Shown one piece after another: positions 20,941 to 58,208 of a stretch of DNA of 64,000 nt; positions within the stretch are counted from its first letter, which is position 1; every line of letters begins with the position of its first letter. The notes under the pieces were generated by a model, which saw only the letters and a list, made by a program, of their open reading frames with translations, was not told where the DNA came from and made no database searches. Origin of the DNA: Flectonema sp. DT1601 (lineage: Eukaryota); the NCBI GenBank assembly GCA_964019425.1, contig OZ025792.1:186001-250000 (forward strand), given 5' to 3'. Both the position numbers and the translations under genes were made by a program.

Positions 20941-23900
20941 TTACAGGTGGGCTGCTGATGACTTTGTCTTTGGCCGTTTACCTGATTGTCCACATTGTGG
21001 ACATAATTTATAAGAACATTGAGTGCAGTAACTCATTCGCGTGCAGCACTTGACTCGCTCTCCACATGTGAAGCACGTTTCGAATTGTGTGTAAGCTTTT
21101 CGAGTTTTCAGGGGATGCCCTTTTGGGCACTGAGTCATTAGACTAAGTCCGAGTAAGGTATCCATATCCGATACCCATTTTGGTGTTGTTCCTCTGAGAG
21201 ACGTCAGTGTCTTGCGTGGAGGTTGAACCCAAAGAGAACTGTCTGAAAGACATCCTTCTTTATTAACTATTCGAACACTAACAGATCGATGAACATCTTC
21301 TAAGTGTTGACCAACAATACTCGCTCCACAACTACATCGTTCTCTTGGAGCTACTTGTTTAACATTGTGTTGAGGCTTTACGTCTGAATCAACTTGTTTT
21401 GGAAATGATCTGATGAAGTCGATATCACGGAGATCTTTGGTGGGTTCTGTCTTCTCAACTGGCCGCTTTCGGATTTGAGGTAGTCTTTGTTGCTTGATTC
21501 CAACTAGTTTCTCCTCGTTATCTTTTCTATAAAATGGTACTACGGGTTTGTATATAATTCCGGTCTTCTTCCACTCTGAGAAGAATGGTGAAATATCAAT
21601 TGATAATTGAACTGGTACTTTAATATCACCATCTTCATTCTGTTTAATTGACAAGTCTTCCATCTTCTTTCGCAAAGTCGTCCACGAGAATGTTTTTAGC
21701 AACGCTGTCGGCGTATGAGAAACCCAAGGCTCTTCATCTGGTTTATCCTTCTCCAAAGATTCTGTTTCTTTGTCTGGAGGTTGTTCTCTGACTAATGGAA
21801 AATGCCAATTAATATCCGTATCATCATAATCATTTGTTGGTAGTCTACCGTGATATTCAATTCTTAATGAGTATGCTCTGAGAGTAGCTTGGTGAGTGTA
21901 TGTATCAAAGTCAGCTATAATGATAGCTCCTGGATTCTCATTCAGAGAAACAAATGTAATTTGAGAACACGGAGTGAGGACCGTTCTGAAGAAAGTTCCT
22001 CCGCCTTCGTATGAACTTTCATTCATTTCAAGAATTGGTATTCCGATTGGAACAGTCTTTGGGAATGGTCGTAGTTCTTGCGGAGCTGTATTAGTATTTG
22101 TTAGGTATCCTTGATCAGTTAGGTATTCCACACACCACTTTGCAGTCTTTCTTTCAGAAGGTTCGACAACAAGTAAATTTGATACAATACTACCCAGAGC
22201 AACATCTAAAGTCATAGCATGAGCAATCTTACTACTTAAGTAGTTATCAATATCAGCCGTTGGTGAATTCAAGATCTCTACAATGTTATCACAAGTAGCA
22301 GTTTCTGGAAACACTCTACTCTGAGTAAGACACTCAAGTATAATTATACCAAAACACCACATATCATAGAAACTTGTCGCTGGGAGGCTTTCTCCTCTTG
22401 TTCTCTTTCTCGCCATTTCAGGAGGACAGTAGCCTGGGGTAAATCGAAGAGGAAGTAGATTTCCTAGTTTGCAAGATGTATCGAGGTCGATTATCTTCCA
22501 CGCCTCTCCAAACTCAACAACGTTCTTTGGTTTGATATCACAATGAGCGTAACCAACTGAATGGATTTCATGAAGTCCATTGTTGAGACCTTCAACCATT
22601 GACCGAAGGTTTTCTGCTGTGAGTTCTGAATGAAAAATTGCATCCCAGAGAGTTCGACCTCCGCATTCAAACACTAAATGAGCTGTGCCTAGTGGTAAGG
22701 GATCAGTCCAGAACTCGAATAGTCGGGTAACACTTTCAGATCCATACTTTAGCAAAGCTTGACATAATTCAACTTCTGTTTGGTATTCTTGGAGATCAGT
22801 CACAGTCTTCAGTGCAACTCGTTTATTGAGTCGAAGATCAACACCCAAATGGACTTCATTGCTGGACCCTCTGACAGTCTTTTCAATAATGTATCGCTTT
22901 CTGTAAAGTGTTTGGTTGTCAGGTACCGAGACGAGATTCCAATTAGCGTCCTTGTGTATCTCAAAAAAAGAACAGGCCAACCACGTAAAGCTAATCGTTT
23001 TTACTCTTTTATGATCAGTAGCAATAATTGCGAGTTCTGTTTCGTTAAACCCGAGAGACGTTGCAACAAATGGAACGAGTTCTGTGTGTTCGTCTGTTTG
23101 CTTTTCATCCACTTGCGATACCAAGTCTAGTGTTAGCTTTAACATTAGAGCTACATTGACACCGTTATAAATATATAATATCCCTTTTTTACAACAGCTT
23201 AGAAGGCAATTTCGATTATCTAAAGTACAGCATGCAGTTACTTTTGAGTTAAGCTTTCCATAGAAAAGAGGTTCTTCAAGGTGCTTCATATCCCAAGCCT
23301 CAAGACATAGTTGGGATGAGTCATCGTTGTGCTCACCAAAGAGATACACAATTCCATTTCCAATTGAGTAGCAGGAAAGGTAGACTTGCCAGTCTGGTTT
23401 TGAAGTACCTCCTGTTAAAGCTTGGTGTCGTAGGATGGGTCTTTCATTGGAGATTCTCAGGTGATTTATAACTGAAATCTGACCTTTTTGAGAAACAATC
23501 ATCAAGTGTTTTGACTCTGTACGTTGTGATGTTATTCGACGTCTGTCACTATCAGTCGCCTTCTTCAATCGATAAATGGCTCTCACTCCCGAACTAGATG
23601 ATGTTCGAAACGTTCCCAAGACTGCTCCAGTATCAGTACTTGTAATCTTTATCCTTCCATCTTCATTCCCAACGGCTACTCTTGCGCAGTCATTATCGCA
23701 CCAACAAAGTCCTGTTTTTTTTTTAATTGAATTGAAATAACCAAATGCGGTGACAACATTCAAAAAAAAAAAAAAAAAAACTAAAAATAGATTAGCGCAG
23801 ATATTCTCACTATTCTCGCACAAAATAACTCCCACTCAGTACACAAATTGAGAACTGGTGGGGTGCAGTTGCGCTGTGAAGGATGCTGGACAGTATCGCT

Positions 23901-26900
23901 TGAACAGCGGAGTTGATTTTCTAATTATTCTCGCACAAAATAACTCCCACTTAGTTCACCATTTAGGAACTAGTGAGGTGCAGTTGCGCTGACCAGGAAG
24001 GCAGAAAGCCGGTTGGCTAAAACCTGTCTGTCAGCTAACCAAAACAGAATTCTCGCACAAAATAACTCCCACTCAGTACACAAATTGAGAACTGATGGGG
24101 TGCAGTTGCGCTGACACATCGCTCTGTAGTAAGTCGGTTAGCGTCCACATCCGCGTCGTAAATAATTCATTTCCAGAACTCATTCAGTCCTCAATGATGA
24201 GAAGACCTCAAAAATATCATCCAAAACAAAAAAAACAGAATTCTTGCACAAAATAACTCCCACTCAGTACACAAGTTGAGAACTGGAGGGGTGCAGTTGC
24301 GCTGACCAGGAAGGCAGAAAGCCGGTTGGCTAAAACCTGTCAGGGACAAATATCCAAAACTAAATCAAAACAGAATTCTCGCACAGAATAACTCCCACTC
24401 AGTTCACTATTTAGGAACTAGTGAGGTGCAGTTGCGCTGCAAAACAGAATAGCAAAGCAACCCTTTCCTTGAGGAAATGACGATTTCATGGGCGACTTTA
24501 TGAACCAACAGTAAAACAATATTAATACGAAAGAACAATTAGATGAACACCACCAGTAGTGGTTGTTGAGATAATTGATCTTCACATCCATAAGAGGGTT
24601 TGATATTAATAACAAAAAGGATAAAAAACTTCGATTCTCGCACAAAATAACTCCCACTCAGTACACAAATTGAGAACTGGTGGGGTGCAGTTGCGCTGAC
24701 ACATCGCTCTGTAGTAAGTCGGTTAGCGTCCACATCCGCGCCGTAAATAATTCATTTCCAGAACTCATTCAGTCCTCAATGATGAGAAGACCTCAAAAAT
24801 ATCATCCAAAACAAAAAAAACAAAATTCTTGCACAAAATAACTCCCACTCAGTACACAAGTTGAGAACTAGTGAGGTGCAGTTGCGCTGCGAACGCCTCC
24901 GCCTATCAGGAAGTAATTTTTTTAATAATATCTGTGTACTGCCGAAACAAAAAATATTTTTCTTAACATACCAGTGACCTCAGATGATGACAGCCGTTCT
25001 TGTGCGAGTATAAGTCTTCCATCAAGTGATGAATACGTGTACAGTTTACTACCAGATGCTAATACGATTATTTGCTTTTTGTGCCCCAATAGGATATGTG
25101 AGATTGGTTGTTTCATTTTGTGGATGTGGATATTTGACTTCGCTTTATACCAAGAAATGACTTTACCTATCGATATGAGAACCCCGTCATTTGAGTCTAA
25201 GCAGTAACAGGCAACAGGTCCAGGGAGGTATTTTGAAAGAGGACCACCAAGAGTTTGAATTGGACTATACGAACGAACATCCCACGTGATGACTCTTCCA
25301 GTGACATCCATACTTAGACACGTTGGTGTATTTGGGAAATTACAAACACCTAAAACCTGTTTATCATGACCAGCCAGTGTTGCTAATGATCCACTAGCAG
25401 TAAACGGATTCCATACAAGAACCTCCTTACCATGTCCACTACTTAGTAAGACTCGATATTCTTCAACATAACAAAGAGAGAGTACACCCTTCGTGTGACC
25501 AATCTTTTTATAACGATGTTCTCCAGTAGACAAGTCCCACACTCTAACAGTCTTATCGAGTGATGCGGAAACTATTAATCGAAGGTCACTAATTACTAAC
25601 AATTCGGTTATCCAATCTTCATGACCCAAAGCAAAGCGTACACAAGGTGTTGGATACTTTCTTGGATCAGACCAACCCGCTGTTAGTAAATCTTCTCGAC
25701 GACGTGTTCGTTGTGATGTTCGAGCGTCCTTTTGTGGAGGTAACTTCTCATCATCACTTCCTGTGAGAGTCAGTCGAGTTTTGTATCTGCCAGTTGCACT
25801 CCCTGGAGTGCTGCATTCATCTTGTTTTTGATCAACTGTGATGACATCATCTTGATTTGTGTTGTCTGGCGAGTTATTAATTTCACAATCAGATTGACTC
25901 TCTCCTATCTGAGGGTCAGCTACTGCTGTTGAAGTGACATCATCAGAGTTCTCTAATACAGTCAGAGAGTCTTGTACTGGAGTATGATCATCTGTGATTA
26001 TTATCTTCTCTTCTATTGATATTTCTGGTGCAATACTACTGATGGTTTCATGTTCGCTGGTTGTCTCACTGATGTTAGCCTGCTGTTTAACTGCTGTATT
26101 TCTGTTTGTTTTACCAACTTTCTTAATTACTTGTTCTTCTTCTCCAACGACATGTCTATCGTCTTGAAGATGACGCTCTGTGGGTGTCCATGTCATCAAG
26201 TTATCAATATTGTAGCCTTTAATGTTTCTTTCTAATCCAGCAACGTATAAGAATGCACCGTTGTCTAATCTAACAGAAGTTAAACAGAATATTGGTTGAG
26301 GGAATGGTATTCTCTTTAAAATCGAACGTTGTTTTTCATCCCAAATTATAATAGTGCTATCACTACTAGTGGTTGCGAGTCTAGCTATTGCTGTTAGATA
26401 AGCTGCGTGCATTACGGAAGATTTATGTCCGTGGAGCTCTGCATACAGAACACCTGTAGTTGTATGAATATAAACAACTTTACTTTGGGTACATAGGACT
26501 AGTTTTCTCCAAGGCTCAACATATATTATTTTATCGACGTCTCGTCCTTCCCAGTCTCTTGCTTGGGGTTTTTCTTGAAATTGTTTTATTGTTTGTTTGA
26601 TTGCTGCGGATTCTACAATAAAGGTTGAGACATCCATCCAGTCAATGAGACTGTCAGAATCACAATCGAGTTGGGTAAATAGGTTTGTGAGTCTTCTGTT
26701 AGTAAAGTCTTTTGAGACAACTCCTACTTGCTTATCAATAAGAGTCTTTTCAGCTGATTCAATGCCATCGTTGTAGTGATTTCCTTCCTTTACACGATCT
26801 CTTCCCCATTCAGTAAACGTAAATTGAATTGCTTCTCGAAACCCTTCCAAGTCCAACCGCTTCTCTCCAACTTCTAAAAAACGATTCTTAAGTACTCGAA

Positions 26901-27385: not shown

Positions 27386-28303
27386 TCATACCATATTCGG
27401 AGAGATGTTACCACTGTCATCAAGGACGAGACTAGGAAGGTTTGTCCAGTCCCAATTGTAGACGAGATTAGACACCAGAAGGGCGATTATACAGCCAGGT
27501 GCAAGAGCCATCTGTTGGGCTTTTTTATCAAAGTGCATTGTGACAGCGGCAGCGACAAGGCCAAATATCATATAAGTAGCCCAAACAGTTGTATCTGAAA
27601 AATCTGTTTCATAACCAGCGTGCATGATTGCAGCGAGGCCCCCGAATGTAGCCTGTGAATCAGGCATGCAGAATAGCGATAGTGGAATGCTCCATACTCT
27701 CCTCCACCAAATCCTGTTCATCATAAAATGTTCTTTGGTGAGACTCTTTCCAACAAACGCGCTGAAAAATTGAACGACAAAAACTAACAAAGTCAGATAG
27801 CTGTGTGCTGTCAACATCGATGACTTTATTGGTAAACAAGATCCCCAGATTCCAATTATCGTCCATTGATCTTCGTATTGTTTTTTAACAGTCGCAACGC
27901 TAATAAAATATAAATCCTCATACGACCGTACAACACCATGTCTCCAACTTATCGGTGAGAAGAAAATATGATATAAAGGTATGAGTGGTTGTGTTGCATC
28001 TCTCTCTACACATTCTACTACCTGCTTCTCACTTGGGACACCAACAAGACATGAAATAGTTAATATACAGCACAACAGTAAACACATCCACTTATAACCA
28101 ACTCCTTCAGTACTTTTTTGTAGTTTAATTTGAAGCATCTCTCTCTCAATTGTCAGTTTTTGGGTCATTTCAAACAACTGCGCAGCGGATATTGGAGGCT
28201 GTGCATTTTTGCTTGGCTTTGCTTTTGGGGGCATTACCCCCAACAGCTTGCCTTTACCTGGTTTGGGGGGGCGATTAATACGAGTAGAGTTAGAAGCAGG
28301 CAT
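27386..28303 (-). CDS. Hypothetical multi-pass membrane protein
   Basis: 305-aa ORF with several hydrophobic segments. Its first ~105 bp lie inside the duplicated 1.64-kb unit. Confidence 0.65.
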   Translation of the reverse strand: MPASNSTRINRPPKPGKGKLLGVMPPKAKPSKNAQPPISAAQLFEMTQKLTIEREMLQIKLQKSTEGVGYKWMCLLLCCILTISCLVGVPSEKQVVECVERDATQPLIPLYHIFFSPISWRHGVVRSYEDLYFISVATVKKQYEDQWTIIGIWGSCLPIKSSMLTAHSYLTLLVFVVQFFSAFVGKSLTKEHFMMNRIWWRRVWSIPLSLFCMPDSQATFGGLAAIMHAGYETDFSDTTVWATYMIFGLVAAAVTMHFDKKAQQMALAPGCIIALLVSNLVYNWDWTNLPSLVLDDSGNISPNMV

Positions 28304-28828
28304 TTGTGAAACTGCAGAAAAGTTTACTCAAGGAAAGGAAGGAGAGAGAAAAGAATCTGGCGTTTGAGATACTGGGATCTCGAGACGGAAAAAGGCTAAG
28401 CCGAAATCAGCTTTTGTGACATTAAGCCTTTTATGACACCGCTTTGCCAAAACTCAAAATAATATATGATAAGGCTGAGGATTTTCATCACCCAAGAGTA
28501 AAGACACCATCTCGTGGCATTAATTCGTTATCGGAAACTTTTAATGCCAACAAGAGAGCAGCAATCCTTTTCTGGTGACAGCCTTTTTCATATATTTTAA
28601 CTTCTAAACGATAAGATCGGTAGTGTGTGAACGAGCTCACCTAAGGTGTACACGTCAAAAATAAAAAACAAAAATAACGTACGGATATTTGACAATTTCA
28701 CACTGAGAGACCACGAAAATAAGATTTTAATAGCATGCCATTGTTAGCTTTTGTTCTTTCATTCACGATGGCTATTTTGTACCTGTATAGTTCGGTAAGA
28801 AAAAGGCAAAGTGAAAAGAAGTGTTGCT

Positions 28829-29548
28829 TTAGTTGCTATCAAAGTAATCAGCCGGATTGCCAACTATTACTGAAGCAGCGTATGAACCAATTCCGCAAAG
28901 GTTAGATCCGTATTGGATGCGAATGTAACCAGATTCTCCCCATGACTTGCCCCAGCTGTTTTTAACAATCCAGTATGCCGATGTACTAGAACGACCGAGT
29001 CCAACAACAAGAGCAGAATGATCAACTTGAGAAGAAGGACAGCTTTCAAGAATTCCACCTTCATAAGTCTCCCATGAAGTGGCATCAAAGTCTGCGAATA
29101 CCGGACCATTTTTAAATAAGAAGGCAGCAAGTTGTTCTTCTCCAGGAATCGATGTGAAGTTTGAAACCTTTGCAGTAATCTTATTCTCGTGGAACTCACA
29201 TTTTCCTGTTGCTGTTGGATATTCAGCTTCCGATTCTAATCCCCCAACACTCGCAATGTATTCAATCTTATCAGAGATCTTTGACGTGCAGTCAGCTATT
29301 TGAGCAAACGACATCATCACAACTCCAGCTTTCTTGTTTCCCTTCAAATACCATTGCGAAGCAGTCTGATCTGCAGCAGTAAAATCATCTGCCTCTCCCA
29401 AAGCACCTTCATTCTGAACAGGTGTCGTTGAAGACCTCCAATCTTTTCCCGTTGAAACGGCGTGCTTGACTTCTCCTGATCTAAACTTTTTAAAAGGATA
29501 CCCGGCACTCAGCGCCATTCCAACCATTCCAACGCATACCAATGACAT
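28829..29548 (-). CDS. Papain-family (C1A) homologue lacking the catalytic Cys, copy 1
   Basis: DWR..TTPVQNEG, VDHSALVVG, YWIVKNSWGKSWGESGY. QGxCGSCWAF is replaced by EGALGEADDF. Confidence 0.9.
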   Translation of the reverse strand: MSLVCVGMVGMALSAGYPFKKFRSGEVKHAVSTGKDWRSSTTPVQNEGALGEADDFTAADQTASQWYLKGNKKAGVVMMSFAQIADCTSKISDKIEYIASVGGLESEAEYPTATGKCEFHENKITAKVSNFTSIPGEEQLAAFLFKNGPVFADFDATSWETYEGGILESCPSSQVDHSALVVGLGRSSTSAYWIVKNSWGKSWGESGYIRIQYGSNLCGIGSYAASVIVGNPADYFDSN

Positions 29549-30469
29549 TGTAATAATAAATTAAGCTGTTTTGAAATGGTGTTCTTATAAACAAAAAACA
29601 ATTAATTCGATTAAGAATGAAACGAATAATCTGACCCCTTGGTCACCTCCTCGATAATGATTAAACTACAGCGTCTCTAGTTCCAATATGAGTTTATTAT
29701 AAAGAAGTGCACTAAATTAAAATATAAAAAAAGAAAAATTATAAAAACACATTGTTCAGTCGTCTTTCTTGAGCTTTTCCTTAGTGTTGGTGAGGAGTAG
29801 AATTCCTTCATTCGAGGATGCCATGGTGCAGTCGTTACTGTTGCTGTGCATTTTTGCTTGGCTTTGCTTTTGGGGGCATTACCCCCAACAGCTTGCCTTT
29901 ACCTGGTTTGGGGGGGGGCGATTAATACGAGTAGAGTTAGAAGCAGGCATTTGTGAAAAGTTTACTCAAGGAAAGGAAAGGAGAGAGAAAAGAATCTGGC
30001 GTTTGAGATACTGGGGTCTCGGAGACGGAAAAAGGCTAAGCCGAAATCAGCTTTTGTGACATTAAGCCTTTTATGACACCGCTTTGCCAAAACTCAAAAT
30101 AATATATGATAAGGCTGAGGATTTTCATCACCCAAGAGTAAAGACACCATCTCGTGGCATTAATTCGTTATCGGAAACTTTTAATGCCAACAAGAGAGCA
30201 GCAATCCTTTTCTGGTGACAGCCTTTTTCATATTTTTTAACTTCTAAACGATAAGATCGGTAGTGTGTGAACGAGCTCACCTAAGGTGTACACGTCAAAA
30301 ATAAAAAACAAAAATAACGTACGGATATTTGACAATTTCACACTGAGAGACCACGAAAATAAGATTTTAATAGCATGCCATTGTTAGCTTTTGTTCTTTC
30401 ATTCACGATGGCTATTTTGTACCTGTATAGTTCGGTAAGAAAAAGGCGAAAGTGAAAAGAAGTGTTGCT

Positions 30470-31189
30470 TTAGTTGTTATCAAAGTAATCAGCCGGATTG
30501 CCAACTATTACTGAAGCAGCGTATGAACCAATTCCGCAAAGGCTAGATCCGTATTGGATGCGAATGTAACCAGATTCTCCCCATGACTTGCCCCAGCTGT
30601 TTTTAACAATCCAGTATGCCGATGTACTAGAACGACCGAGTCCAACAACAAGAGCAGAATGATCAACTTGAGAAGAAGGACAGCTTTCAAGAATTCCACC
30701 TTCATAAGTCTCCCATGAAGTGGCATCAAAGTCTGCGAATACCGGACCATTTTTAAATAAGAAGGCAGCAAGTTGTTCTTCTCCAGGAATCGATGTGAAG
30801 TTTGAAACCTTTGCAGTAATCTTATTCTCGTGGAACTCACATTTTCCTGTTGCTGTTGGATATTCAGCTTCCGATTCTAATCCCCCAACACTCGCAATGT
30901 ATTCAATCTTATCAGAGATCTTTGACGTGCAGTCAGCTATTTGAGCAAACGACATCATCACAACTCCAGCTTTCTTGTTTCCCTTCAAATACCATTGCGA
31001 AGCAGTCTGATCTGCAGCAGTAAAATCATCTGCCTCTCCCAAAGCACCTTCATTCTGAACAGGTGTCGTTGAAGACCTCCAATCTTTTCCCGTTGAAACG
31101 GCGTGCTTGACTTCTCCTGATCTAAACTTTTTAAAAGGATACCCGGCACTCAGCGCCATTCCAACCATTCCAACGCATACCAATGACAT
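30470..31189 (-). CDS. Inactive papain-family homologue, copy 2
   Basis: Near-identical to copy 1. Confidence 0.9.
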   Translation of the reverse strand: MSLVCVGMVGMALSAGYPFKKFRSGEVKHAVSTGKDWRSSTTPVQNEGALGEADDFTAADQTASQWYLKGNKKAGVVMMSFAQIADCTSKISDKIEYIASVGGLESEAEYPTATGKCEFHENKITAKVSNFTSIPGEEQLAAFLFKNGPVFADFDATSWETYEGGILESCPSSQVDHSALVVGLGRSSTSAYWIVKNSWGKSWGESGYIRIQYGSSLCGIGSYAASVIVGNPADYFDNN

Positions 31190-32105
31190 TGTAATAATAA
31201 ATTAAGCTGTTTTGAAATGGTGTTCTTATAAACAAAAAACAATTAATTTGATTAAGAATGAAACGAATAATCTGACCCCTTGGTCACCTCCTCGATAATG
31301 ATTAAACTACAGCGTCTCTAGTTCCAATATGAGTTTATTATAAAAAAGTGCACTAAATTAAAATATAAAAAAAGAAAAAATATAAAAACACATTGTTCAG
31401 TCGTCTTTCTTGAGCTTTTCCTTAGTGTTGGTGAGGAGTAGAATTCCTTCATTCGAGGATGCCATGGTGCGGTCGTTACTGTTGCTGTGCATTTTTGCTT
31501 GGCTTTGCTTTTGGGGGCATTACCCCCAACAGCTTGCCTTTACCTGGTTTGGGGGGGCGATTAATACGAGTAGAGGCATTTGTGAAACTGCAGCAAAGTT
31601 TACTCAAGGAAAGGAAGGAGAGAGAAAAGAATCTGGCGTTTGAGATACTGGGATCTCGGAGACGGAAAAAGGCTAAGCCGAAATCAGCTTTTGTGACATT
31701 AAGCCTTTTATGACACCGCTTTGCCAAAACTCAAAATAATATATGATAAGGCTGAGGACTTTCATCACCCAAGAGTAAAGACACCATCTCGTGGCATTAA
31801 TTCGTTATCGGAAACTTTTAATGCCAACAAGAGAGCAGCAATCCTTTTCTGGTGACAGCCTTTTTCATATTTTTTAACTTCTAAACGATAAGATCGGTAG
31901 TGTGTGAACGAGCTCACCTAAGGTGTACACGTCAAAAATAAAAAACAAAAATAACGTACGGATATTTGACAATTTCACACTGAGAGACCACGAAAATAAG
32001 ATTTTAATAGCATGCCATTGTTAGCTTTTGTTCTTTCATTCACGATGGCTATTTTGTACCTGTATAGTTCGGTAAGAAAAAGGCAAAGTGAAAAGAAGTG
32101 TTGCT

Positions 32106-32825
32106 TTAGTTGTTATCAAAGTAATCAGCCGGATTGCCAACTATTACTGAAGCAGCGTATGAACCAATTCCGCAAAGGTTAGATCCGTATTGGATGCGAA
32201 TGTAACCAGATTCTCCCCATGACTTGCCCCAGCTGTTTTTAACAATCCAGTATGCCGATGTACTAGAACGACCGAGTCCAACAACAAGAGCAGAATGATC
32301 AACTTGAGAAGAAGGACAGCTTTCAAGAATTCCACCTTCATAAGTCTCCCATGAAGTGGCATCAAAGTCTGCGAACACCGGACCGTTTTTAAATAAGAAG
32401 GCAGCAAGTTGTTCTTCTCCAGGAATCGATGTGAAGTTTGAAACCTTTGCAGTAATCTTATTCTCGTGGAACTCACATTTTCCTGTTGCTGTTGGATATT
32501 CAGCTTCCGATTCTAATCCCCCAACACTCGCAATGTATTCAATCTTATCAGAGATCTTTGACGTGCAGTCAGCTATTTGAGCAAACGACATCATCGCAAC
32601 TCCAGCTTTCTTGTTTCCCTTCAAATACCATTGCGAAGCAGTCTGATCTGCAGCAGTAAAATCATCTGCCTCTCCCAAAGCACCTTCATTCTGAACAGGT
32701 GTCGTTGAAGACCTCCAATCTTTTCCCGTTGAAACGGCGTGCTTGACTTCTCCTGATCTAAACTTTTTAAAAGGATACCCGGCACTCAGCGCCATTCCAA
32801 CCATTCCAACGCATACCAATGACAT
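32106..32825 (-). CDS. Inactive papain-family homologue, copy 3
   Basis: Near-identical to copy 1. Confidence 0.9.
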   Translation of the reverse strand: MSLVCVGMVGMALSAGYPFKKFRSGEVKHAVSTGKDWRSSTTPVQNEGALGEADDFTAADQTASQWYLKGNKKAGVAMMSFAQIADCTSKISDKIEYIASVGGLESEAEYPTATGKCEFHENKITAKVSNFTSIPGEEQLAAFLFKNGPVFADFDATSWETYEGGILESCPSSQVDHSALVVGLGRSSTSAYWIVKNSWGKSWGESGYIRIQYGSNLCGIGSYAASVIVGNPADYFDNN

Positions 32826-33747
32826 TGTAATAATAAATTAAGCTGTTTTGAAATGGTGTTCTTATAAACAAAAAACAATTAATTTGATTAAGAATGAAAC
32901 GAATAATCTGACCCCTTGGTCACCTCCTCGATAATGATTAAACTACAGCGTCTCTAGTTCCAATATGAGTTTATTATAAAGAAGTGCACTAAATTAAAAT
33001 ATAAAAAAAGAAAAATTATAAAAACACATTGTTCAGTCGTCTTTCTTGAGCTTTTCCTTAGTGTTGGTGAGGAGTAGAATTCCTTCATTCGAGGATGCCA
33101 TGGTGCAGTCGTTACTGTTGCTGTGCATTTTTGCTTGGCTTTGCTTTTGGGGGCATTACCCCCAACAGCTTGCCTTTACCTGGTTTGGGGGGGCGATTAA
33201 TACGAGTAGAGGCATTTGTGAAACTGCAGCAAAGTTTACTCAAGGAAAGGAAAGGAAGGAGAGAGAAAAGAATCTGGCGTTTGAGATACTGGGATCTCGG
33301 AGACGGAAAAAGGCTAAGCCGAAATCAGCTTTTGTGACATTAAGCCTTTTATGACACCGCTTTGCCAAAACTCAAAATAATATATGATAAGGCTGAGGAT
33401 TTTCATCACCCAAGAGTAAAGACACCATCTCGTGGCATTAATTCGTTATCGGAAACTTTTAATGCCAACAAGAGAGCAGCAATCCTTTTCTGGTGACAGC
33501 CTTTTTCATATTTTTTAACTTCTAAACGATAAGATCGGTAGTGTGTGAACGAGCTCACCTAAGGTGTACACGTCAAAAATAAAAAACAAAAATAACGTAC
33601 GGATATTTGACAATTTCACACTGAGAGACCACGAAAATAAGATTTTAATAGCATGCCATTGTTAGCTTTTGTTCTTTCATTCACGATGGCTATTTTGTAC
33701 CTGTATAGTTCGGTAAGAAAAAGGCGAAAGTGAAAAGAAGTGTTGCT

Positions 33748-34467
33748 TTAGTTGTTATCAAAGTAATCAGCCGGATTGCCAACTATTACTGAAGCAGCGT
33801 ATGAACCAATTCCGCAAAGGCTAGATCCGTATTGGATGCGAATGTAACCAGATTCTCCCCATGACTTGCCCCAGCTGTTTTTAACAATCCAGTATGCCGA
33901 TGTACTAGAACGACCGAGTCCAACAACAAGAGCAGAATGATCAACTTGAGAAGAAGGACAGCTTTCAAGAATTCCACCTTCATAAGTCTCCCATGAAGTG
34001 GCATCAAAGTCTGCGAACACCGGACCGTTTTTAAATAAGAAGGCAGCAAGTTGTTCTTCTCCAGGAATCGATGTGAAGTTTGAAACCTTTGCAGTAATCT
34101 TATTCTCGTGGAACTCACATTTTCCTGTTGCTGTTGGATATTCAGCTTCCGATTCTAATCCCCCAACACTCGCAATGTATTCAATCTTATCAGAGATCTT
34201 TGACGTGCAGTCAGCTATTTGAGCAAACGACATCATCGCAACTCCAGCTTTCTTGTTTCCCTTCAAATACCATTGCGAAGCAGTCTGATCTGCAGCAGTA
34301 AAATCATCTGCCTCTCCCAAAGCACCTTCATTCTGAACAGGTGTCGTTGAAGACCTCCAATCTTTTCCCGTTGAAACGGCGTGCTTGACTTCTCCTGATC
34401 TAAACTTTTTAAAAGGATACCCGGCACTCAGCGCCATTCCAACCATTCCAACGCATACCAATGACAT
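33748..34467 (-). CDS. Inactive papain-family homologue, copy 4
   Basis: Near-identical to copy 1. Confidence 0.9.
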   Translation of the reverse strand: MSLVCVGMVGMALSAGYPFKKFRSGEVKHAVSTGKDWRSSTTPVQNEGALGEADDFTAADQTASQWYLKGNKKAGVAMMSFAQIADCTSKISDKIEYIASVGGLESEAEYPTATGKCEFHENKITAKVSNFTSIPGEEQLAAFLFKNGPVFADFDATSWETYEGGILESCPSSQVDHSALVVGLGRSSTSAYWIVKNSWGKSWGESGYIRIQYGSSLCGIGSYAASVIVGNPADYFDNN

Positions 34468-35389
34468 TGTAATAATAAATTAAGCTGTTTTGAAATGGTG
34501 TTCTTATAAACAAAAAACAATTAATTTGATTAAGAATGAAACGAATAATCTGACCCCTTGGTCACCTCCTCGATAATGATTAAACTACAGCGTCTCTAGT
34601 TCCAATATGAGTTTATTATAAAGAAGTGCACTAAATTAAAATATAAAAAAAGAAAAATTATAAAAACACATTGTTCAGTCGTCTTTCTTGAGCTTTTCCT
34701 TAGTGTTGGTGAGGAGTAGAATTCCTTCATTCGAGGATGCCATGGTGCAGTCGTTACTGTTGCTGTGCATTTTTGCTTGGCTTTGCTTTTGGGGGCATTA
34801 CCCCCAACAGCTTGCCTTTACCTGGTTTGGGGGGGCGATTAATACGAGTAGAGGCATTTGTGAAACTGCAGCAAAGTTTACTCAAGGAAAGGAAAGGAAG
34901 GAGAGAGAAAAGAATCTGGCGTTTGAGATACTGGGATCTCGGAGACGGAAAAAGGCTAAGCCGAAATCAGCTTTTGTGACATTAAGCCTTTTATGACACC
35001 GCTTTGCCAAAACTCAAAATAATATATGATAAGGCTGAGGATTTTCATCACCCAAGAGTAAAGACACCATCTCGTGGCATTAATTCGTTATCGGAAACTT
35101 TTAATGCCAACAAGAGAGCAGCAATCCTTTTCTGGTGACAGCCTTTTTCATATTTTTTAACTTCTAAACGATAAGATCGGTAGTGTGTGAACGAGCTCAC
35201 CTAAGGTGTACACGTCAAAAATAAAAAACAAAAATAACGTACGGATATTTGACAATTTCACACTGAGAGACCACGAAAATAAGATTTTAATAGCATGCCA
35301 TTGTTAGCTTTTGTTCTTTCATTCACGATGGCTATTTTGTACCTGTATAGTTCGGTAAGAAAAAGGCGAAAGTGAAAAGAAGTGTTGCT

Positions 35390-36109
35390 TTAGTTGTTAT
35401 CAAAGTAATCAGCCGGATTGCCAACTATTACTGAAGCAGCGTATGAACCAATTCCGCAAAGGCTAGATCCGTATTGGATGCGAATGTAACCAGATTCTCC
35501 CCATGACTTGCCCCAGCTGTTTTTAACAATCCAGTATGCCGATGTACTAGAACGACCGAGTCCAACAACAAGAGCAGAATGATCAACTTGAGAAGAAGGA
35601 CAGCTTTCAAGAATTCCACCTTCATAAGTCTCCCATGAAGTGGCATCAAAGTCTGCGAACACCGGACCGTTTTTAAATAAGAAGGCAGCAAGTTGTTCTT
35701 CTCCAGGAATCGATGTGAAGTTTGAAACCTTTGCAGTAATCTTATTCTCGTGGAACTCACATTTTCCTGTTGCTGTTGGATATTCAGCTTCCGATTCTAA
35801 TCCCCCAACACTCGCAATGTATTCAATCTTATCAGAGATCTTTGACGTGCAGTCAGCTATTTGAGCAAACGACATCATCGCAACTCCAGCTTTCTTGTTT
35901 CCCTTCAAATACCATTGCGAAGCAGTCTGATCTGCAGCAGTAAAATCATCTGCCTCTCCCAAAGCACCTTCATTCTGAACAGGTGTCGTTGAAGACCTCC
36001 AATCTTTTCCCGTTGAAACGGCGTGCTTGACTTCTCCTGATCTAAACTTTTTAAAAGGATACCCGGCACTCAGCGCCATTCCAACCATTCCAACGCATAC
36101 CAATGACAT
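35390..36109 (-). CDS. Inactive papain-family homologue, copy 5
   Basis: Protein identical to copy 4. Confidence 0.9.
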   Translation of the reverse strand: MSLVCVGMVGMALSAGYPFKKFRSGEVKHAVSTGKDWRSSTTPVQNEGALGEADDFTAADQTASQWYLKGNKKAGVAMMSFAQIADCTSKISDKIEYIASVGGLESEAEYPTATGKCEFHENKITAKVSNFTSIPGEEQLAAFLFKNGPVFADFDATSWETYEGGILESCPSSQVDHSALVVGLGRSSTSAYWIVKNSWGKSWGESGYIRIQYGSSLCGIGSYAASVIVGNPADYFDNN

Positions 36110-37031
36110 TGTAATAATAAATTAAGCTGTTTTGAAATGGTGTTCTTATAAACAAAAAACAATTAATTTGATTAAGAATGAAACGAATAATCTGACCCCT
36201 TGGTCACCTCCTCGATAATGATTAAACTACAGCGTCTCTAGTTCCAATATGAGTTTATTATAAAGAAGTGCACTAAATTAAAATATAAAAAAAGAAAAAT
36301 TATAAAAACACATTGTTCAGTCGTCTTTCTTGAGCTTTTCCTTAGTGTTGGTGAGGAGTAGAATTCCTTCATTCGAGGATGCCATGGTGCAGTCGTTACT
36401 GTTGCTGTGCATTTTTGCTTGGCTTTGCTTTTGGGGGCATTACCCCCAACAGCTTGCCTTTACCTGGTTTGGGGGGGCGATTAATACGAGTAGAGGCATT
36501 TGTGAAACTGCAGCAAAGTTTACTCAAGGAAAGGAAAGGAAGGAGAGAGAAAAGAATCTGGCGTTTGAGATACTGGGATCTCGGAGACGGAAAAAGGCTA
36601 AGCCGAAATCAGCTTTTGTGACATTAAGCCTTTTATGACACCGCTTTGCCAAAACTCAAAATAATATATGATAAGGCTGAGGATTTTCATCACCCAAGAG
36701 TAAAGACACCATCTCGTGGCATTAATTCGTTATCGGAAACTTTTAATGCCAACAAGAGAGCAGCAATCCTTTTCTGGTGACAGCCTTTTTCATATTTTTT
36801 AACTTCTAAACGATAAGATCGGTAGTGTGTGAACGAGCTCACCTAAGGTGTACACGTCAAAAATAAAAAACAAAAATAACGTACGGATATTTGACAATTT
36901 CACACTGAGAGACCACGAAAATAAGATTTTAATAGCATGCCATTGTTAGCTTTTGTTCTTTCATTCACGATGGCTATTTTGTACCTGTATAGTTCGGTAA
37001 GAAAAAGGCGAAAGTGAAAAGAAGTGTTGCT

Positions 37032-37751
37032 TTAGTTGTTATCAAAGTAATCAGCCGGATTGCCAACTATTACTGAAGCAGCGTATGAACCAATTCCGCA
37101 AAGGCTAGATCCGTATTGGATGCGAATGTAACCAGATTCTCCCCATGACTTGCCCCAGCTGTTTTTAACAATCCAGTATGCCGATGTACTAGAACGACCG
37201 AGTCCAACAACAAGAGCAGAATGATCAACTTGAGAAGAAGGACAGCTTTCAAGAATTCCACCTTCATAAGTCTCCCATGAAGTGGCATCAAAGTCTGCGA
37301 ACACCGGACCGTTTTTAAATAAGAAGGCAGCAAGTTGTTCTTCTCCAGGAATCGATGTGAAGTTTGAAACCTTTGCAGTAATCTTATTCTCGTGGAACTC
37401 ACATTTTCCTGTTGCTGTTGGATATTCAGCTTCCGATTCTAATCCCCCAACACTCGCAATGTATTCAATCTTATCAGAGATCTTTGACGTGCAGTCAGCT
37501 ATTTGAGCAAACGACATCATCGCAACTCCAGCTTTCTTGTTTCCCTTCAAATACCATTGCGAAGCAGTCTGATCTGCAGCAGTAAAATCATCTGCCTCTC
37601 CCAAAGCACCTTCATTCTGAACAGGTGTCGTTGAAGACCTCCAATCTTTTCCCGTTGAAACGGCGTGCTTGACTTCTCCTGATCTAAACTTTTTAAAAGG
37701 ATACCCGGCACTCAGCGCCATTCCAACCATTCCAACGCATACCAATGACAT
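37032..37751 (-). CDS. Inactive papain-family homologue, copy 6
   Basis: Protein identical to copy 4. Confidence 0.9.
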   Translation of the reverse strand: MSLVCVGMVGMALSAGYPFKKFRSGEVKHAVSTGKDWRSSTTPVQNEGALGEADDFTAADQTASQWYLKGNKKAGVAMMSFAQIADCTSKISDKIEYIASVGGLESEAEYPTATGKCEFHENKITAKVSNFTSIPGEEQLAAFLFKNGPVFADFDATSWETYEGGILESCPSSQVDHSALVVGLGRSSTSAYWIVKNSWGKSWGESGYIRIQYGSSLCGIGSYAASVIVGNPADYFDNN

Positions 37752-37957
37752 TGTAATAATAAATTAAGCTGTTTTGAAATGGTGTTCTTATAAACAAAAA
37801 ACAATTAATTTGATTAAGAATGAAACGAATAATCTGACCCCTTGGTCACCTCCTCGATAATGATTAAACTACAGCGTCTCTAGTTCCTTACTAATATCTT
37901 AAAGTAATATTGTACGCTCCTAATGGTTACGGAAGGCCTAACTCAGTTGTAAGATAG

Positions 37958-39142: not shown

Positions 39143-40858
39143 TTATATCGAATTCAGAGGGAAGCTACCACAGTAATATTTAAGATGCCATTCATTACCA
39201 CGTAGACGTTTTAGTTCTTCTTTATCCCATCTCTGAACGTATTCTACTTCATCGTACATGTGTCCCTTCTTTGCTTGGTATTTAGTTCTTTCTTCAAGGA
39301 CTGATTTAAAGTCGAAGTCGTCACCCACTGTTTTGTTTGATAAAGCTGTTTCTAGTTGTGAAGTGATAAACGTATTTACTCATACCAATATTTCCTGCAT
39401 TCTTGTGGTTGACTGGTGGAGATCCGTGTGCCCTGCAACCTCCATCTGTTACAAGTTCTATTCTCATAGATCTCACATTTTTAAAGTTATTGTGAGGAAG
39501 AGGACCCCAACCAATGTGATTCCTGTCAGCTGACCTTGTCAAACTTTTTGATCTTCTTGCACGAGCACGGTTTCTCATTTTTTCTAAAATACGATTATCA
39601 AGTAGTCTCCCTCTGTTAAACTGTTTTTGTTGTGGTTTTGAATTCGACAATGAGACTGCACCCCTCGACATGAAAGGACGCAAGAACAATCACAATTTCT
39701 CAATATCTCGCACAGAATAACTCCCACTCAGTACACAAATTGAGAACTGGTGGGGTGCAGTTGCGCTGACACATCGCTCTGTAGTAAGTCGGTTAGCATC
39801 CACATCCGCGTCGTAAATAATTCATTTCCAGAACTCATTCAGTCCTCAATGATGAGAAGACCTCAAAAATATCATCCAAAACAAAAAAAACAGAATTCTC
39901 GCACAAAATAACTCCCACTCAGTACACAAGTTGAGAACTGGTGGGGTGCAGTTGCGCTGCAAAACAGAAGTAAAGCAACCCTTTCCTCGAGGAAATGACG
40001 ATTTCATGGGCGACTTGAAAACCCATTATCCCACACCACTTCGTCAAAATATTTCATTCTCTTGAGTTGTCGTTATAAATAAACCAACAAGACCTCGTGA
40101 GTTTGGATTTACTCATTTCTTAGTTTACATCAGAGTTGAGTTTTGATATCAACAAAAAGGATAAGAACTTCGATTCTCGCACAAAATAACTCCCACTCAG
40201 TACACAAGTTGAGAACTGGAGGGGTGCAGTTGCGCTGTGAAGGATGCTGGACAGTATCGCTTGAACAGCGGAGTTGATTTTCTAATTATTCTCGCACAAA
40301 ATAACTCCCACTCAGTTCACCATTTAGGAACTAGTGAGGTGCAGTTGCGCTGACCAGGAAGGCAGAAAGCCGGTTGGCTAAAACCTGTCTGTCAGTTAAC
40401 TAAAACAGAATTCTCGCACAAAATAACTCCCACTCAGTACACAAATTGAGAACTGGTGGGGTGCAGTTGCGCTGACACATCGCTCTGTAGTGTAAGTCGG
40501 TAAGCGTCCACATCCGCGCCTTAAATAATTTCTTTCACTGAGACGGCCATAAAGGGACAAATATCCAAAACTAAAATAAAAAACAGAATTCTCGCACAAA
40601 ATAACTCCCACTCAGTACACAAATTGAGAACTAGTGGGGTGCAGTCGCGCTGTAAAGCCTGCTGGACAGCTTGATATTCTCACAACACTTGTTAGTAAAA
40701 GAGAAAGAAAGAAAAAAACAAACCCATTCTCGTTCATCATATCTCATCTTCATCTGTGTTGACATAACTTGATGATAACCTTTGTGACGCACTTGTCGAG
40801 ATAAGCTTCCAGCACCCGCAATGCTACTCACAGCTATTCTATTAATGTTCATATTCAT
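39143..40858 (-). CDS. Basic protein with a mitochondrial-presequence-like N-terminus; 3 exons (40858-40724, 39620-39386, 39327-39143)
   Basis: A phase-0 intron at 40723-39621 (1103 bp, contains array 2) and a phase-1 intron at 39385-39328 join three short ORFs. Arg-rich N-terminus lacking acidic residues. A mitoribosomal role is only a guess. Confidence 0.7.
39704..40652 (-). repeat. Intronic array 2: six copies of the same 65-bp hairpin repeat with 50-213 bp spacers
   Basis: Copies start at 39704, 39895, 40173, 40288, 40410 and 40588. Spacers are shared with array 1 in a different order. Confidence 0.95.
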
Positions 40859-54306: not shown

Positions 54307-56154
54307 TCATTTCAAATTCCTTAAGCTCGTATGCAGTTCGCCTCTGTTAATGGATGAACAACCTTCTAGGAAATTACTTCCAACGGATTCCACATTCATG
54401 AGGGTTAAATCCAAGGAAGTTAGTGATGAACAATTTCTTAGAAAATTGTTTCCAACAACTGAAACATTACTGAGACTTGATAAGTCAAGAGATGTGAGGG
54501 ATGAACAAAAACACAGAAAATAGTCTCCTACAGCTGAAACACTGCTGAGGCCTGATAAGTCAACAGATTTGAGGGATGAACAAGAACACAGAAAATAGTC
54601 TCCAACAACTGAAACATTGCTGAGACTTGATAAGTCAAGAGATGTGAGGGATGAACAATAATATAGAAACTTGTCTCCAACAGCTGAAACATTGCTGAGA
54701 CATGATAAGTCAAGGGATTTGAGGGATGAACCAGAACACAGAAAATAGTCTCTAACAGCTGAAAACTTGCTGAGACATGATAAGTCAACAAAGGTGAGGG
54801 ATGAACAATAATATAGAAACTTGACTCCAACAGCTGAAACATTGCTGAGACTTGATAAATCAAGAGATGTGAGGGATGAACAAGAACACAGAAAATAGTC
54901 TCCAACAGCCATGACACTGCTGAGACTTGATAAGTCAAGAGATGTGAGGGATGAACAAGAACACAGAAAATAGTCTCCAACAGCCGTGACACTGCTGAGA
55001 CTTGATAAGTCAAAAGATGTGAGGGATGAACAATCACTTAGAAAATACTCTCCCACGGCTGAAATATTGCTGAGACTCGGTAAGTCAACAAAGGTGAGGG
55101 ATGAACAATTACGCAGAAAAGACTCTCCAACAGCTGAAATATTGCTGAGACTTGACAAGTCAAGAGATATGAGGGATGAACAATTACGCAGAAAATTGTC
55201 TCCAACAGCTGAAACACTGCTGAGACTTGATAAGTCAAAAGATGTGAGGGATGAACAATCATTTAGAAAATAGTCTCCAACAGCTGAAACACTGCTGAGA
55301 CTTGGTAAGTCAAAAGATGTGAGGGATGAACAATCACTTAGAAAATACTCTCCCACGGCTGAAATATTGCTGAGACTTGATAAGTCAACAAAGGCGAGGG
55401 ATGAACAATTACGCAGAAAAGACTCTCCTACAGCTGAAATATTGCTGAGACTTGATAAGTCAACAAAGGTGAGGGATGAACAATTACGCAGAAAAGACTC
55501 TCCTACAGCTGAAATATTGCTGAGACCTGATAAGTCAAGAGATGTGAGGGATGAACAATCACTTAGAAAATAGTCTCCAACAACTGAAACATTGCTGAGA
55601 CTTGATAAGTCTACAAATGACAGTGAATAGCAAGCTTGGAAGAAATTATTACCAACAGACGTGACGTATTGAAGACCAGGCAGACTGACCTTTATAACCT
55701 GACGAGACGAGTATAAGAAATCATCCAAAACGGTCGTGACTGAGGGTTCAGGGTTGCTGAATGAGATGTTCGTAACATCATCCTCGAACCACTCACTGTT
55801 AAACTGAAGACAGCCATCCGCAGCGAATGTGGGAGTATCAAGGCACAAAAACCCGTCCTGATCCCGTTCTCCTCGTAGGAATGCCTTCGCTCTCTTTGCA
55901 TCATCTGTGAACCATTCCAATCCAAACAAGCGCACCACCGATGCATCCAACAGCGAGCCGTCCTCCACTCCGTACGACACCAGTCGACTACCTGCTCGAA
56001 GCCGCGATCCTGCGAGAGAAAGCTCAAGAAAGTCAGTATCGGTACCCCACTCATTAGCTGCAACCTGCAATGCATCCTTCACGAGCGACTCTCCAGAAGC
56101 TGTGAAAATAACGTCAGGAAATCCTGTGTCTGGGAACGTAACCGAGAGTTGCAT
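54307..56154 (-). CDS. Ubiquitin-like N-domain + BspA-like leucine-rich repeat protein (about 18 repeats of 25 aa)
   Basis: Start MQLSVTF. UBL-like segment LELSLAGSRL..LVSYGVEDGSLL. Repeat CSSLTSLDLSSLSNVSAVGDYFLxx with 75-bp DNA periodicity. Confidence 0.88.
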   Translation of the reverse strand: MQLSVTFPDTGFPDVIFTASGESLVKDALQVAANEWGTDTDFLELSLAGSRLRAGSRLVSYGVEDGSLLDASVVRLFGLEWFTDDAKRAKAFLRGERDQDGFLCLDTPTFAADGCLQFNSEWFEDDVTNISFSNPEPSVTTVLDDFLYSSRQVIKVSLPGLQYVTSVGNNFFQACYSLSFVDLSSLSNVSVVGDYFLSDCSSLTSLDLSGLSNISAVGESFLRNCSSLTFVDLSSLSNISAVGESFLRNCSSLAFVDLSSLSNISAVGEYFLSDCSSLTSFDLPSLSSVSAVGDYFLNDCSSLTSFDLSSLSSVSAVGDNFLRNCSSLISLDLSSLSNISAVGESFLRNCSSLTFVDLPSLSNISAVGEYFLSDCSSLTSFDLSSLSSVTAVGDYFLCSCSSLTSLDLSSLSSVMAVGDYFLCSCSSLTSLDLSSLSNVSAVGVKFLYYCSSLTFVDLSCLSKFSAVRDYFLCSGSSLKSLDLSCLSNVSAVGDKFLYYCSSLTSLDLSSLSNVSVVGDYFLCSCSSLKSVDLSGLSSVSAVGDYFLCFCSSLTSLDLSSLSNVSVVGNNFLRNCSSLTSLDLTLMNVESVGSNFLEGCSSINRGELHTSLRNLK

Positions 56155-56511
56155 TTTAACTCGCCCGAGTAACCTACAAAATGTGATGATGAATGGCTTG
56201 GAGTATGATGAGATTATAACGAACGTGCAAAACATGTTTCTTCAAACAGACTTCCCATTTTTTTGGTGCACAACGTAGTCCCAACCTATTGAAAATAACG
56301 CCACTATGGGCTTCTGATAATGTCATCTTCGCTGTTAAGTAAAATTGATAATTAGGCTTCGCTCTAAAAGAGGAAACAGATAAATCAAAAACAAACAGTG
56401 GCTAACTGTAGCCCTGAAAGCAAACGAACGAACAACATCAATCTGATGCAATGTTTAACTGTATCACATATCACTTTTGATTATTAACGTTCAAATACGA
56501 CCAATCATTTC

Positions 56512-57879: not shown

Positions 57880-58208
57880 TGACTGTTCTCATAGAAAACA
57901 ACACAAGACATGCCTTTATCACTACACTCTTGTGAACAAACAGTGACTGTTCTCATAGAAAACAACACAAGACATGCCTTTATCACTACACTCTTGTGAA
58001 CAAACAGTGACTGTTCTCATAGAAAACAACACAAGACATGCCTTTATCACTACACTCTTGTGAACAAACAGTGACTGTTCTCATAGAAAACAACACAAGA
58101 CATGCCTTTATCACTACACTCTTGTGAACAAACAGTGACTGTTCTCATAGAAAACAACACAAGACATGCCTTTATCACTACACTCTTGTGAACAAACAGT
58201 GACTGTTC
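57880..58208. repeat. Perfect tandem repeat, 64-bp unit, five copies plus 9 bp
   Basis: tgactgttctcatagaaaacaacacaagacatgcctttatcactacactcttgtgaacaaacag repeated with no differences that I could see. Confidence 0.97.

Follow-up and report, generated by a model that had tools for sequence, protein, structure and literature searches.

A probable single-hairpin AGA-box guide RNA repeated within two introns of Flectonema sp. DT1601

Introduction

In trypanosomatids, H/ACA-like RNAs consist of one hairpin of 57–91 nucleotides (nt), with a stem I of 5–8 base pairs (bp) and an AGA box found 3 nt from the 3′ end and 1–3 nt after stem I (PMC2613932). Additionally, an A or C precedes stem I, 13–16 nt extend from the pocket to the box, and the mature molecule starts 1–3 nt before stem I (PMC2613932). 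In trypanosomes, the clusters described are polycistronic and mix C/D and H/ACA-like genes, and clusters composed only of H/ACA-like genes had not been found by 2008 (PMC2613932). The guides of Euglena gracilis are likewise single hairpins, and many of their genes are multi-copy and linked (PMC2613932, PMC2784804). The present analysis concerns a 64,000-nt stretch of Flectonema sp. DT1601 (assembly GCA_964019425.1, contig OZ025792.1, positions 186,001 to 250,000), hereafter the window, in which a 65-nt unit is repeated. This unit is probably the gene of one single-hairpin AGA-box (H/ACA-like) pseudouridylation guide RNA, predicted here in 13 copies that form one-guide arrays in two introns.

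The locus shares with trypanosomatid AGA-box small nucleolar RNAs (snoRNAs) the single hairpin, the position of the AGA, the A before stem I and the clustering of repeated genes (PMC2613932). Unlike the trypanosome clusters, however, the arrays repeat one guide 6–7 times within cis-spliced introns. A preliminary description of the window had proposed an AGA-box RNA lying in introns on the host-gene strand; the geometry, the sharp ends of homology, the pattern of variation and two confirmed introns speak for this proposal, whereas no convincing target emerged above a shuffled-pocket control in the non-euglenozoan ribosomal RNA (rRNA) loci compared.

The repeated unit and its hairpin

The window contains exactly 13 near-identical copies of the unit, the number given in the preliminary description, all on the minus strand (7 at 23812–24889, array 1, and 6 at 39704–40652, array 2) and representing 11 distinct haplotypes. 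The span 23812–23991 reported at that time holds two of them, 23812–23876 and 23927–23991. A covariance model built from the 13 copies themselves, and run over the window with filters off, recovered these units at 94–104 bits, matched their upper stems weakly on the plus strand and gave nothing else above 9.5 bits, so that no further, dispersed or decayed copy was detected in the 64 kilobases (kb).

In unit positions, the hairpin comprises a CA lead (1–2), stem I (3–7/55–59), a pocket (8–14/47–54), stem II (15–23/37–46) and a loop (24–36). The AGA, correctly described earlier as kept in every copy, is invariant, and in 13/13 it is separated by 14 nt from the base of stem II and by 1 nt from stem I. 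All copies have a stem I of 5–6 bp, a 5′ pocket strand of 6–7 nt, perfect pairing over at least 3 bp above the pocket and an A directly before stem I, and 98.9% of the 182 stem cells are paired on the minus strand. Thus, all 13 copies have the geometry published for single-hairpin H/ACA-like RNAs of trypanosomatids (consensus features taken from PMC2613932) and, as judged from its sequence, the unit matches the trypanosome H/ACA-like RNA on each structural feature tested.

A strict filter (constrained energy ≤ −14.5 kcal/mol and no more than 2.5 from that of the free fold), whose cut-offs were chosen after the units had been seen, was passed by 13/13 units versus 3 of 2682 other AGA sites (0.1%). 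In every copy, the minus strand gives a more stable fold than the plus strand. Folding z-scores, calculated for five copies, were −3.3, −3.0, −1.3, −0.9 and −1.6 for the minus strand, compared with −2.2 to +0.5 for the plus strand; the two lowest minus-strand values belong to the copies in 23812–23991, and those from −0.9 to −1.6 to three variant copies.

The limits of the unit provide a further line of evidence. Similarity among the copies ends sharply, 2 nt upstream of stem I on one side and 2 nt past the AGA on the other. On the 5′ side, mean pairwise identity drops from 1.0 across unit positions 1–5 to 0.21–0.62 in the 10 nt upstream; on the 3′ side, it remains at 0.85–1.0 from the AGA to +2 and then falls to 0.26–0.59 over the next 10 nt. 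These ends coincide with the mature-RNA ends that the AGA-box consensus predicts, and the predicted length is 65–66 nt instead of the approximately 68 nt suggested previously. The U-rich tract said to follow the AGA usually is found directly after it in 7/13 copies and after 5 nt in one or two more, but is absent in four. As a separate observation, a second AGA occurs 5–6 nt past the box in the diverged flank of four copies (23798–23811, 23913–23926, 39690–39703 and 40274–40287, minus strand), and a stretch similar to this flank is also found directly upstream of the first copy of array 2.

Variation among the copies

Among the 13 copies, 15 of the 65 columns are variable. The lead, stem I, pocket and box together vary in 2/30 columns versus 13/35 elsewhere (Fisher p 0.003, with a column grouping derived from the guide hypothesis itself). 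The pocket strands are the most conserved part (1/15 columns varies) and the AGA is invariant. The loop had been described as the place where variation clusters, which is only partly the case, since 5/13 columns vary in the loop and 4/9 in the 5′ strand of stem II (diversity 0.174 vs 0.157).

Regarding the stems, five of the six distinct changes keep pairing on the minus strand and one gives a U-U apposition; with a tolerance of one in three changes, p for this proportion is about 0.02. Four of the pair-keeping changes are wobbles, which on the plus strand would be A-C mismatches, and the fifth completes a C-G to U-G to U-A path. The variants listed previously were all recovered, namely C16U in four copies, C19U in one, A7G at 40588, the U-U mismatch at 24240 and 40173, and the replacement of C20-G40 by U-A at 23927, with U-G at this pair in four other copies. 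Two variants missing from that list were found in addition, U54C (24375 and 39704) and G60A (24240 and 24825). The statement that most stem changes preserve pairing is borne out by the 5/6 count; formal covariation, considered below, is suggestive but not significant.

Host introns and host organism

Both arrays reside in GT-AG introns of two unrelated genes, each on the minus strand, which is the AGA strand. The earlier placement of the units in introns on the host-gene strand is supported at both loci by homologs that cross the splice junctions. The host gene of array 1, which occupies most of intron 1, has transcriptome-derived homologs, one of them labelled Sspe; the 5/5 tested align to both exons and span the junction; in the homolog P0121, residues 1–577 and 575–1481 fall on the two exons. 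For intron 2, the homolog P0242 reads EREW-FNRG across the splice site. The host gene of array 2 (39146–40858, minus strand) has three exons and encodes a protein of roughly 184 amino acids (aa), with three homologs of 182–183 aa in a profile-library search. Its exon 1 (40724–40858) has a coding codon usage of 0.18, compared with 0.25 for coding windows and −0.39 for non-coding ones, and the 116-aa database model of this gene, P0241, omits exon 1 and the last exon. The N-terminus of the protein gives the impression of a mitochondrial targeting sequence.

The window is eukaryotic and gene-dense, with about 40% GC and long genes mostly on the minus strand. Among 120 listed matches to its Isy1 protein, the top identity was that of Diplonema papillatum (64% over 53% of the query), and the sequence evidence indicates that the host organism is a diplonemid. 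Diplonemids are the sister group of kinetoplastids, which use AGA guides. The donor G/GTATG of intron 1 and the A-rich tracts before CAG agree with the intron patterns of Diplonemidae in PMC12621601, a source that gives species median intron lengths from 37 to 107 nt. Relative to these medians, both array-bearing introns, longer than 1.1 kb, are swollen.

Proposed biogenesis and search for a target

According to the model favored here, the host pre-messenger RNA would carry each array, and the predicted guide RNA would be trimmed from the spliced host introns and bind the Cbf5 core proteins. Assembly of this ribonucleoprotein would protect the segment from about 2 nt before stem I through 3 nt after the AGA. 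By pairing, the two pocket strands are predicted to recognize the pattern RRURRYU-U-N-GUGYRGU, for which a diplonemid rRNA or spliceosomal small nuclear RNA (snRNA) is the most plausible place, and the guide would turn one uridine of this stable RNA into pseudouridine. The arrays would have grown by DNA-level duplication and unequal exchange within units, with occasional reinsertion of mature RNA as a possible seed; stem I, the pocket and the box would be kept fixed by selection on the RNA.

The target was sought in 38 loci with a eukaryotic large-subunit (LSU) rRNA motif from genome contigs, which came from contaminated prokaryotic assemblies and served as non-euglenozoan substitutes for diplonemid rRNA. 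Unbroken pairing was scanned in 40 loci, mismatches were allowed in nine long ones, and six of the latter were compared with eight shuffled pockets each. From these six loci, no universally conserved rRNA site appears to fit the pocket. One locus, L040, exceeded all eight shuffles (26 vs 21–23), with a site not common to the other loci. A half-site, U-A-GUGCAG, lies before the LR7 motif of the LSU rRNA in 4/9 loci, the other arm being variable. In the 5S rRNA of T. brucei, a weak candidate site, U-U-GUG(A/C)AGU, was recognized by eye. A 9-nt match between the 3′ pocket strand and the conserved LSU key motif was rejected, as its gap is 5 nt instead of 2 and, by a hand estimate, about two such wobble matches are expected per 5 kb. 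In the window itself, no convincing target was observed (best score 24 of 35). None of the 61 loci carried the T. brucei 5.8S motif, hence none was taken as kinetoplastid, and viral contigs contributed only rRNA fragments to the target search. In the supplements of PMC4855143, PMC9082867, PMC11613528 and PMC10662448 (for the last, 11 of 18 files and up to 400 characters of each cell), no usable pocket or target motif was encountered.

As regards the source of these loci, L024–L061 lie on contigs of prokaryotic species-representative assemblies, many of which contain a eukaryotic LSU rRNA motif through contamination (at least 38 loci, about 380 estimated), and the viral-collection contigs L020 (4115–4503) and L021 (1–419) bear eukaryotic LSU rRNA fragments at one end.

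Guides of this kind are not restricted to rRNA. In T. brucei, their targets include snRNAs, 7SL, U3 and vault RNA, and the pockets used are often imperfect (PMC6698659, PMC9283944), and SLA1, a multicopy guide for the spliced-leader RNA, is similar to the present unit in its AGA box, its target being non-ribosomal and abundant (PMC9283944). The unit described here may act on an rRNA site peculiar to its lineage, on an snRNA or on some other small RNA. The spliced-leader context targeted by SLA1 presumably does not fit the pocket of this unit.

Several results weigh against a guide RNA. In the six eukaryotic ribosomal DNA (rDNA) loci, the best target scores were 24–26 of a possible 35 and those of shuffled pockets 21–32, with scores inside the shuffled range in five of the six; the search for the target pattern suggested in the preliminary description thus gave nothing convincing above the control in these non-euglenozoan loci. 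The covariation signal, one compensatory cell and four wobble changes, was equalled by 180 of 500 shuffles and is not significant. A loose AGA descriptor is unspecific, being passed by 456 of 2698 AGA sites in the window, and the cut-offs of the strict version were chosen with the units already seen. In the unconstrained free-energy fold, two pairs (A13-U49 and C14-G48) form within the pocket, and the fold described earlier is obtained once the pocket is held open. Segments common to both arrays are 96.9–98% identical over about 255 nt, spacers included; in these recently duplicated segments, spacers and units show about the same similarity, so that recent duplication alone accounts for much of the identity, and the copies appear, from their sequences, to be young or homogenised. 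In Rfam, the window had no match at the gathering score and intron 1 only chance-level ones. Finally, 6 of 11 expressed trypanosome candidates with AGA geometry were independent of CBF5 (PMC2613932).

Homologs were also sought elsewhere. A metagenome scan returned 19 loci, in none of which did similarity extend past the search pattern in an intact hairpin; the closest, L006, sits at the start of a bacterial open reading frame (ORF). No homolog was present in viral contigs or, with intron 1 as the query, in 50,697 phage records.

Array growth and alternative explanations

The units are separated by spacers of 50–213 nt that recur in both arrays and consist of mosaics of shared 5′ and 3′ flank pieces, with no significant match in the rest of the window, in the rDNA loci or, for intron 1, in the 50,697 phage records. 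Blocks of two to four units plus spacers are common to both introns; therefore, most of the array growth reflects DNA-level duplication. All four combinations occur in nine of the 45 informative column pairs, a sign that copies exchanged sequence or that changes recurred. Around the units, at least five unrelated upstream flank types and three downstream types occur in mixed combinations, always meeting the unit at exact ends. A full direct repeat was observed in only one copy (exact 11 nt at 24375), and 9 nt of it are shared by the flanks of a second (39895); later exchange between copies would have scrambled the others. The 11-nt repeat resembles a target-site duplication, and a tandem-duplication junction would look alike. 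Hence, the mobile-unit alternative raised in the preliminary description retains the direct repeats at one copy in its favor, but most of the amplification was segmental duplication of units together with their spacers.

Outside the guide hypothesis, a first alternative is an AGA-box RNA, or a short mobile element derived from a snoRNA, that undergoes processing and perhaps protection by H/ACA proteins but guides no modification. Its spread would be due to mature-RNA reinsertion together with segmental duplication. Such an element is unlikely, but has some probability. It would agree with the failure to find a target in the loci searched and with an exact-ended unit among so many flank types, and AGA-like RNAs independent of CBF5 do exist in trypanosomes, where they share this geometry and have no assigned target in the published account; that class is defined by stability after CBF5 silencing (PMC2613932). 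As in mammalian type 1 snoRNA retroposons, a sequence of mature length lies in introns in sense orientation, and the 11-nt repeat is inside their 7–19 bp range of direct repeats; unlike them, the unit has no A-rich tail, forms tandem arrays with duplicated spacers and lacks a full direct repeat in 12/13 copies (PMC1687206). In fact, an A-rich tail past the mature 3′ end was found on the AGA strand in 0/13 copies. A targetless element is also at odds with the pocket strands being the most conserved part, as target pairing would predict, and with the lack of dispersed or decayed copies elsewhere in the 64 kb. Additionally, the target search on which it leans covered substitute loci instead of the organism's own RNAs.

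A more speculative scenario, to which a smaller chance is given, combines both activities: a self-amplifying, Cbf5-bound AGA-box RNA with no rRNA target would spread through diplonemid introns by mature-RNA reinsertion and tandem expansion and, at high dose, pseudouridylate a non-ribosomal target (an snRNA, another small RNA or messenger RNAs). If true, it would tie a mobile element to RNA modification.

It is improbable that the unit is a DNA-level repeat, such as a miniature inverted-repeat transposable element (MITE)-like or minisatellite unit, with a hairpin arising from imperfect inverted ends, a coincidental AGA and spacing, and no small RNA. The unit ends do show weak self-complementarity, recombination has left the arrays as mosaics, as the four-combination column pairs illustrate, covariation is not significant, and tandem arrays of D. 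papillatum are described as adjoining genes, outside the messenger RNA (PMC10161547). On the other hand, all 13 copies have one orientation, that of both host genes, and the stem changes form G-U pairs on the AGA strand and A-C mismatches on the other, a difference relevant to RNA and not to DNA. The ends fit the predicted mature RNA, and the strict filter admitted just 0.1% of other AGA sites. A MITE would have terminal inverted repeats, a short target-site duplication of fixed length and copies dispersed in either orientation; here, the inverted ends amount to a 5–6 bp stem with G-U pairs, in a single orientation and with no dispersed copies in the 64 kb.

Finally, functional spacers with the hairpin as a processing or protection signal (a repeat–spacer array, or a mixed cluster whose spacers contain C/D snoRNAs) are very improbable. 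The units do alternate with spacers recurring in both arrays, but these are mosaics of flank pieces without significant match in the sequences searched, and the Rfam C/D matches of intron 1 are at chance level, the two best (E 1.2 and 2.3) lying on the opposite strand. One spacer type has a perfect C box on its plus strand, which was rejected as a C/D snoRNA, since a terminal D box follows in 1/3 copies only.

Coordinates and other features of the window

Table 1. Positions of the repeated units, the direct repeats and the host introns in the window
Feature	Coordinates	Strand	Remarks
Unit copy, last of array 1	23812..23876	-	AGA at 23816-23814
Unit copy	23927..23991	-	Sole compensatory pair (C20-G40 to U-A)
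Unit copy	24049..24113	-	C19U (U-G pair)
Unit copy	24240..24304	-	A18U mismatch; G60A
Direct repeat (11 nt), downstream copy	24366..24376	-	Begins directly 3′ of AGA box; overlaps last 2 nt of unit
Unit copy	24375..24439	-	U54C; exact 11-nt direct repeat on both sides
Direct repeat (11 nt), upstream copy	24440..24450	-	Target-site-duplication-like
Unit copy	24634..24698	-	
Unit copy, first of array 1	24825..24889	-	G60A
Host intron 1 (1260 nt), WD40-repeat/protein-kinase gene	23712..24971	-	G/GTATG ... A-tract CAG; contains array 1; homologs spanning junction
Unit copy, last of array 2	39704..39768	-	U54C; UA after AGA
Unit copy	39895..39959	-	Flanks share 9-nt version of direct repeat
Unit copy	40173..40237	-	A18U mismatch
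Unit copy	40288..40352	-	
Unit copy	40410..40474	-	
Unit copy, first of array 2	40588..40652	-	A7G (G-U pair)
Host intron 2 (1103 nt), first intron of the ~184-aa-protein gene	39621..40723	-	GTTTGT ... A-tract CAG; contains array 2; homolog P0242 and codon usage

Other repeats are present in the window. At 57880–58208, between two ORFs, a 64-nt tandem repeat occurs in 5.1 identical copies, each unit containing a 19-nt loop enclosed by a perfect 7-bp inverted pair, and is absent from the strong matches of the AGA descriptor. Between the two host genes, at 28300–37800, a 1.64-kb unit is repeated six times in tandem with 98–100% identity, each with a minus-strand ORF; by their motifs, these ORFs appear to be papain/cathepsin-like, and the region of the usual catalytic cysteine looks altered. 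In the minus-strand gene at 54307–56241, a ubiquitin-like N-terminus is followed, as recognized by eye, by a leucine-rich-like repeat of 75 nt (25 aa) in about 16 copies. No transfer RNA genes were found in the window.

Novelty and biological significance

A literature search found no paper on diplonemid snoRNAs, and neither "snoRNA" nor "small nucleolar" occurs in the main text of the article on the D. papillatum genome (PMC10161547). The AGA-box class is known, while the lineage, a diplonemid, and the layout, one guide among unrelated flanks, appear to be new. This layout would raise the questions of how a single intron can release several guides and why one guide should be needed at such a dose. 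If confirmed, the finding would extend AGA-box single-hairpin guides to diplonemids, the third main euglenozoan group, and the single hairpin together with the change from ACA to AGA would be a trait shared across the phylum.

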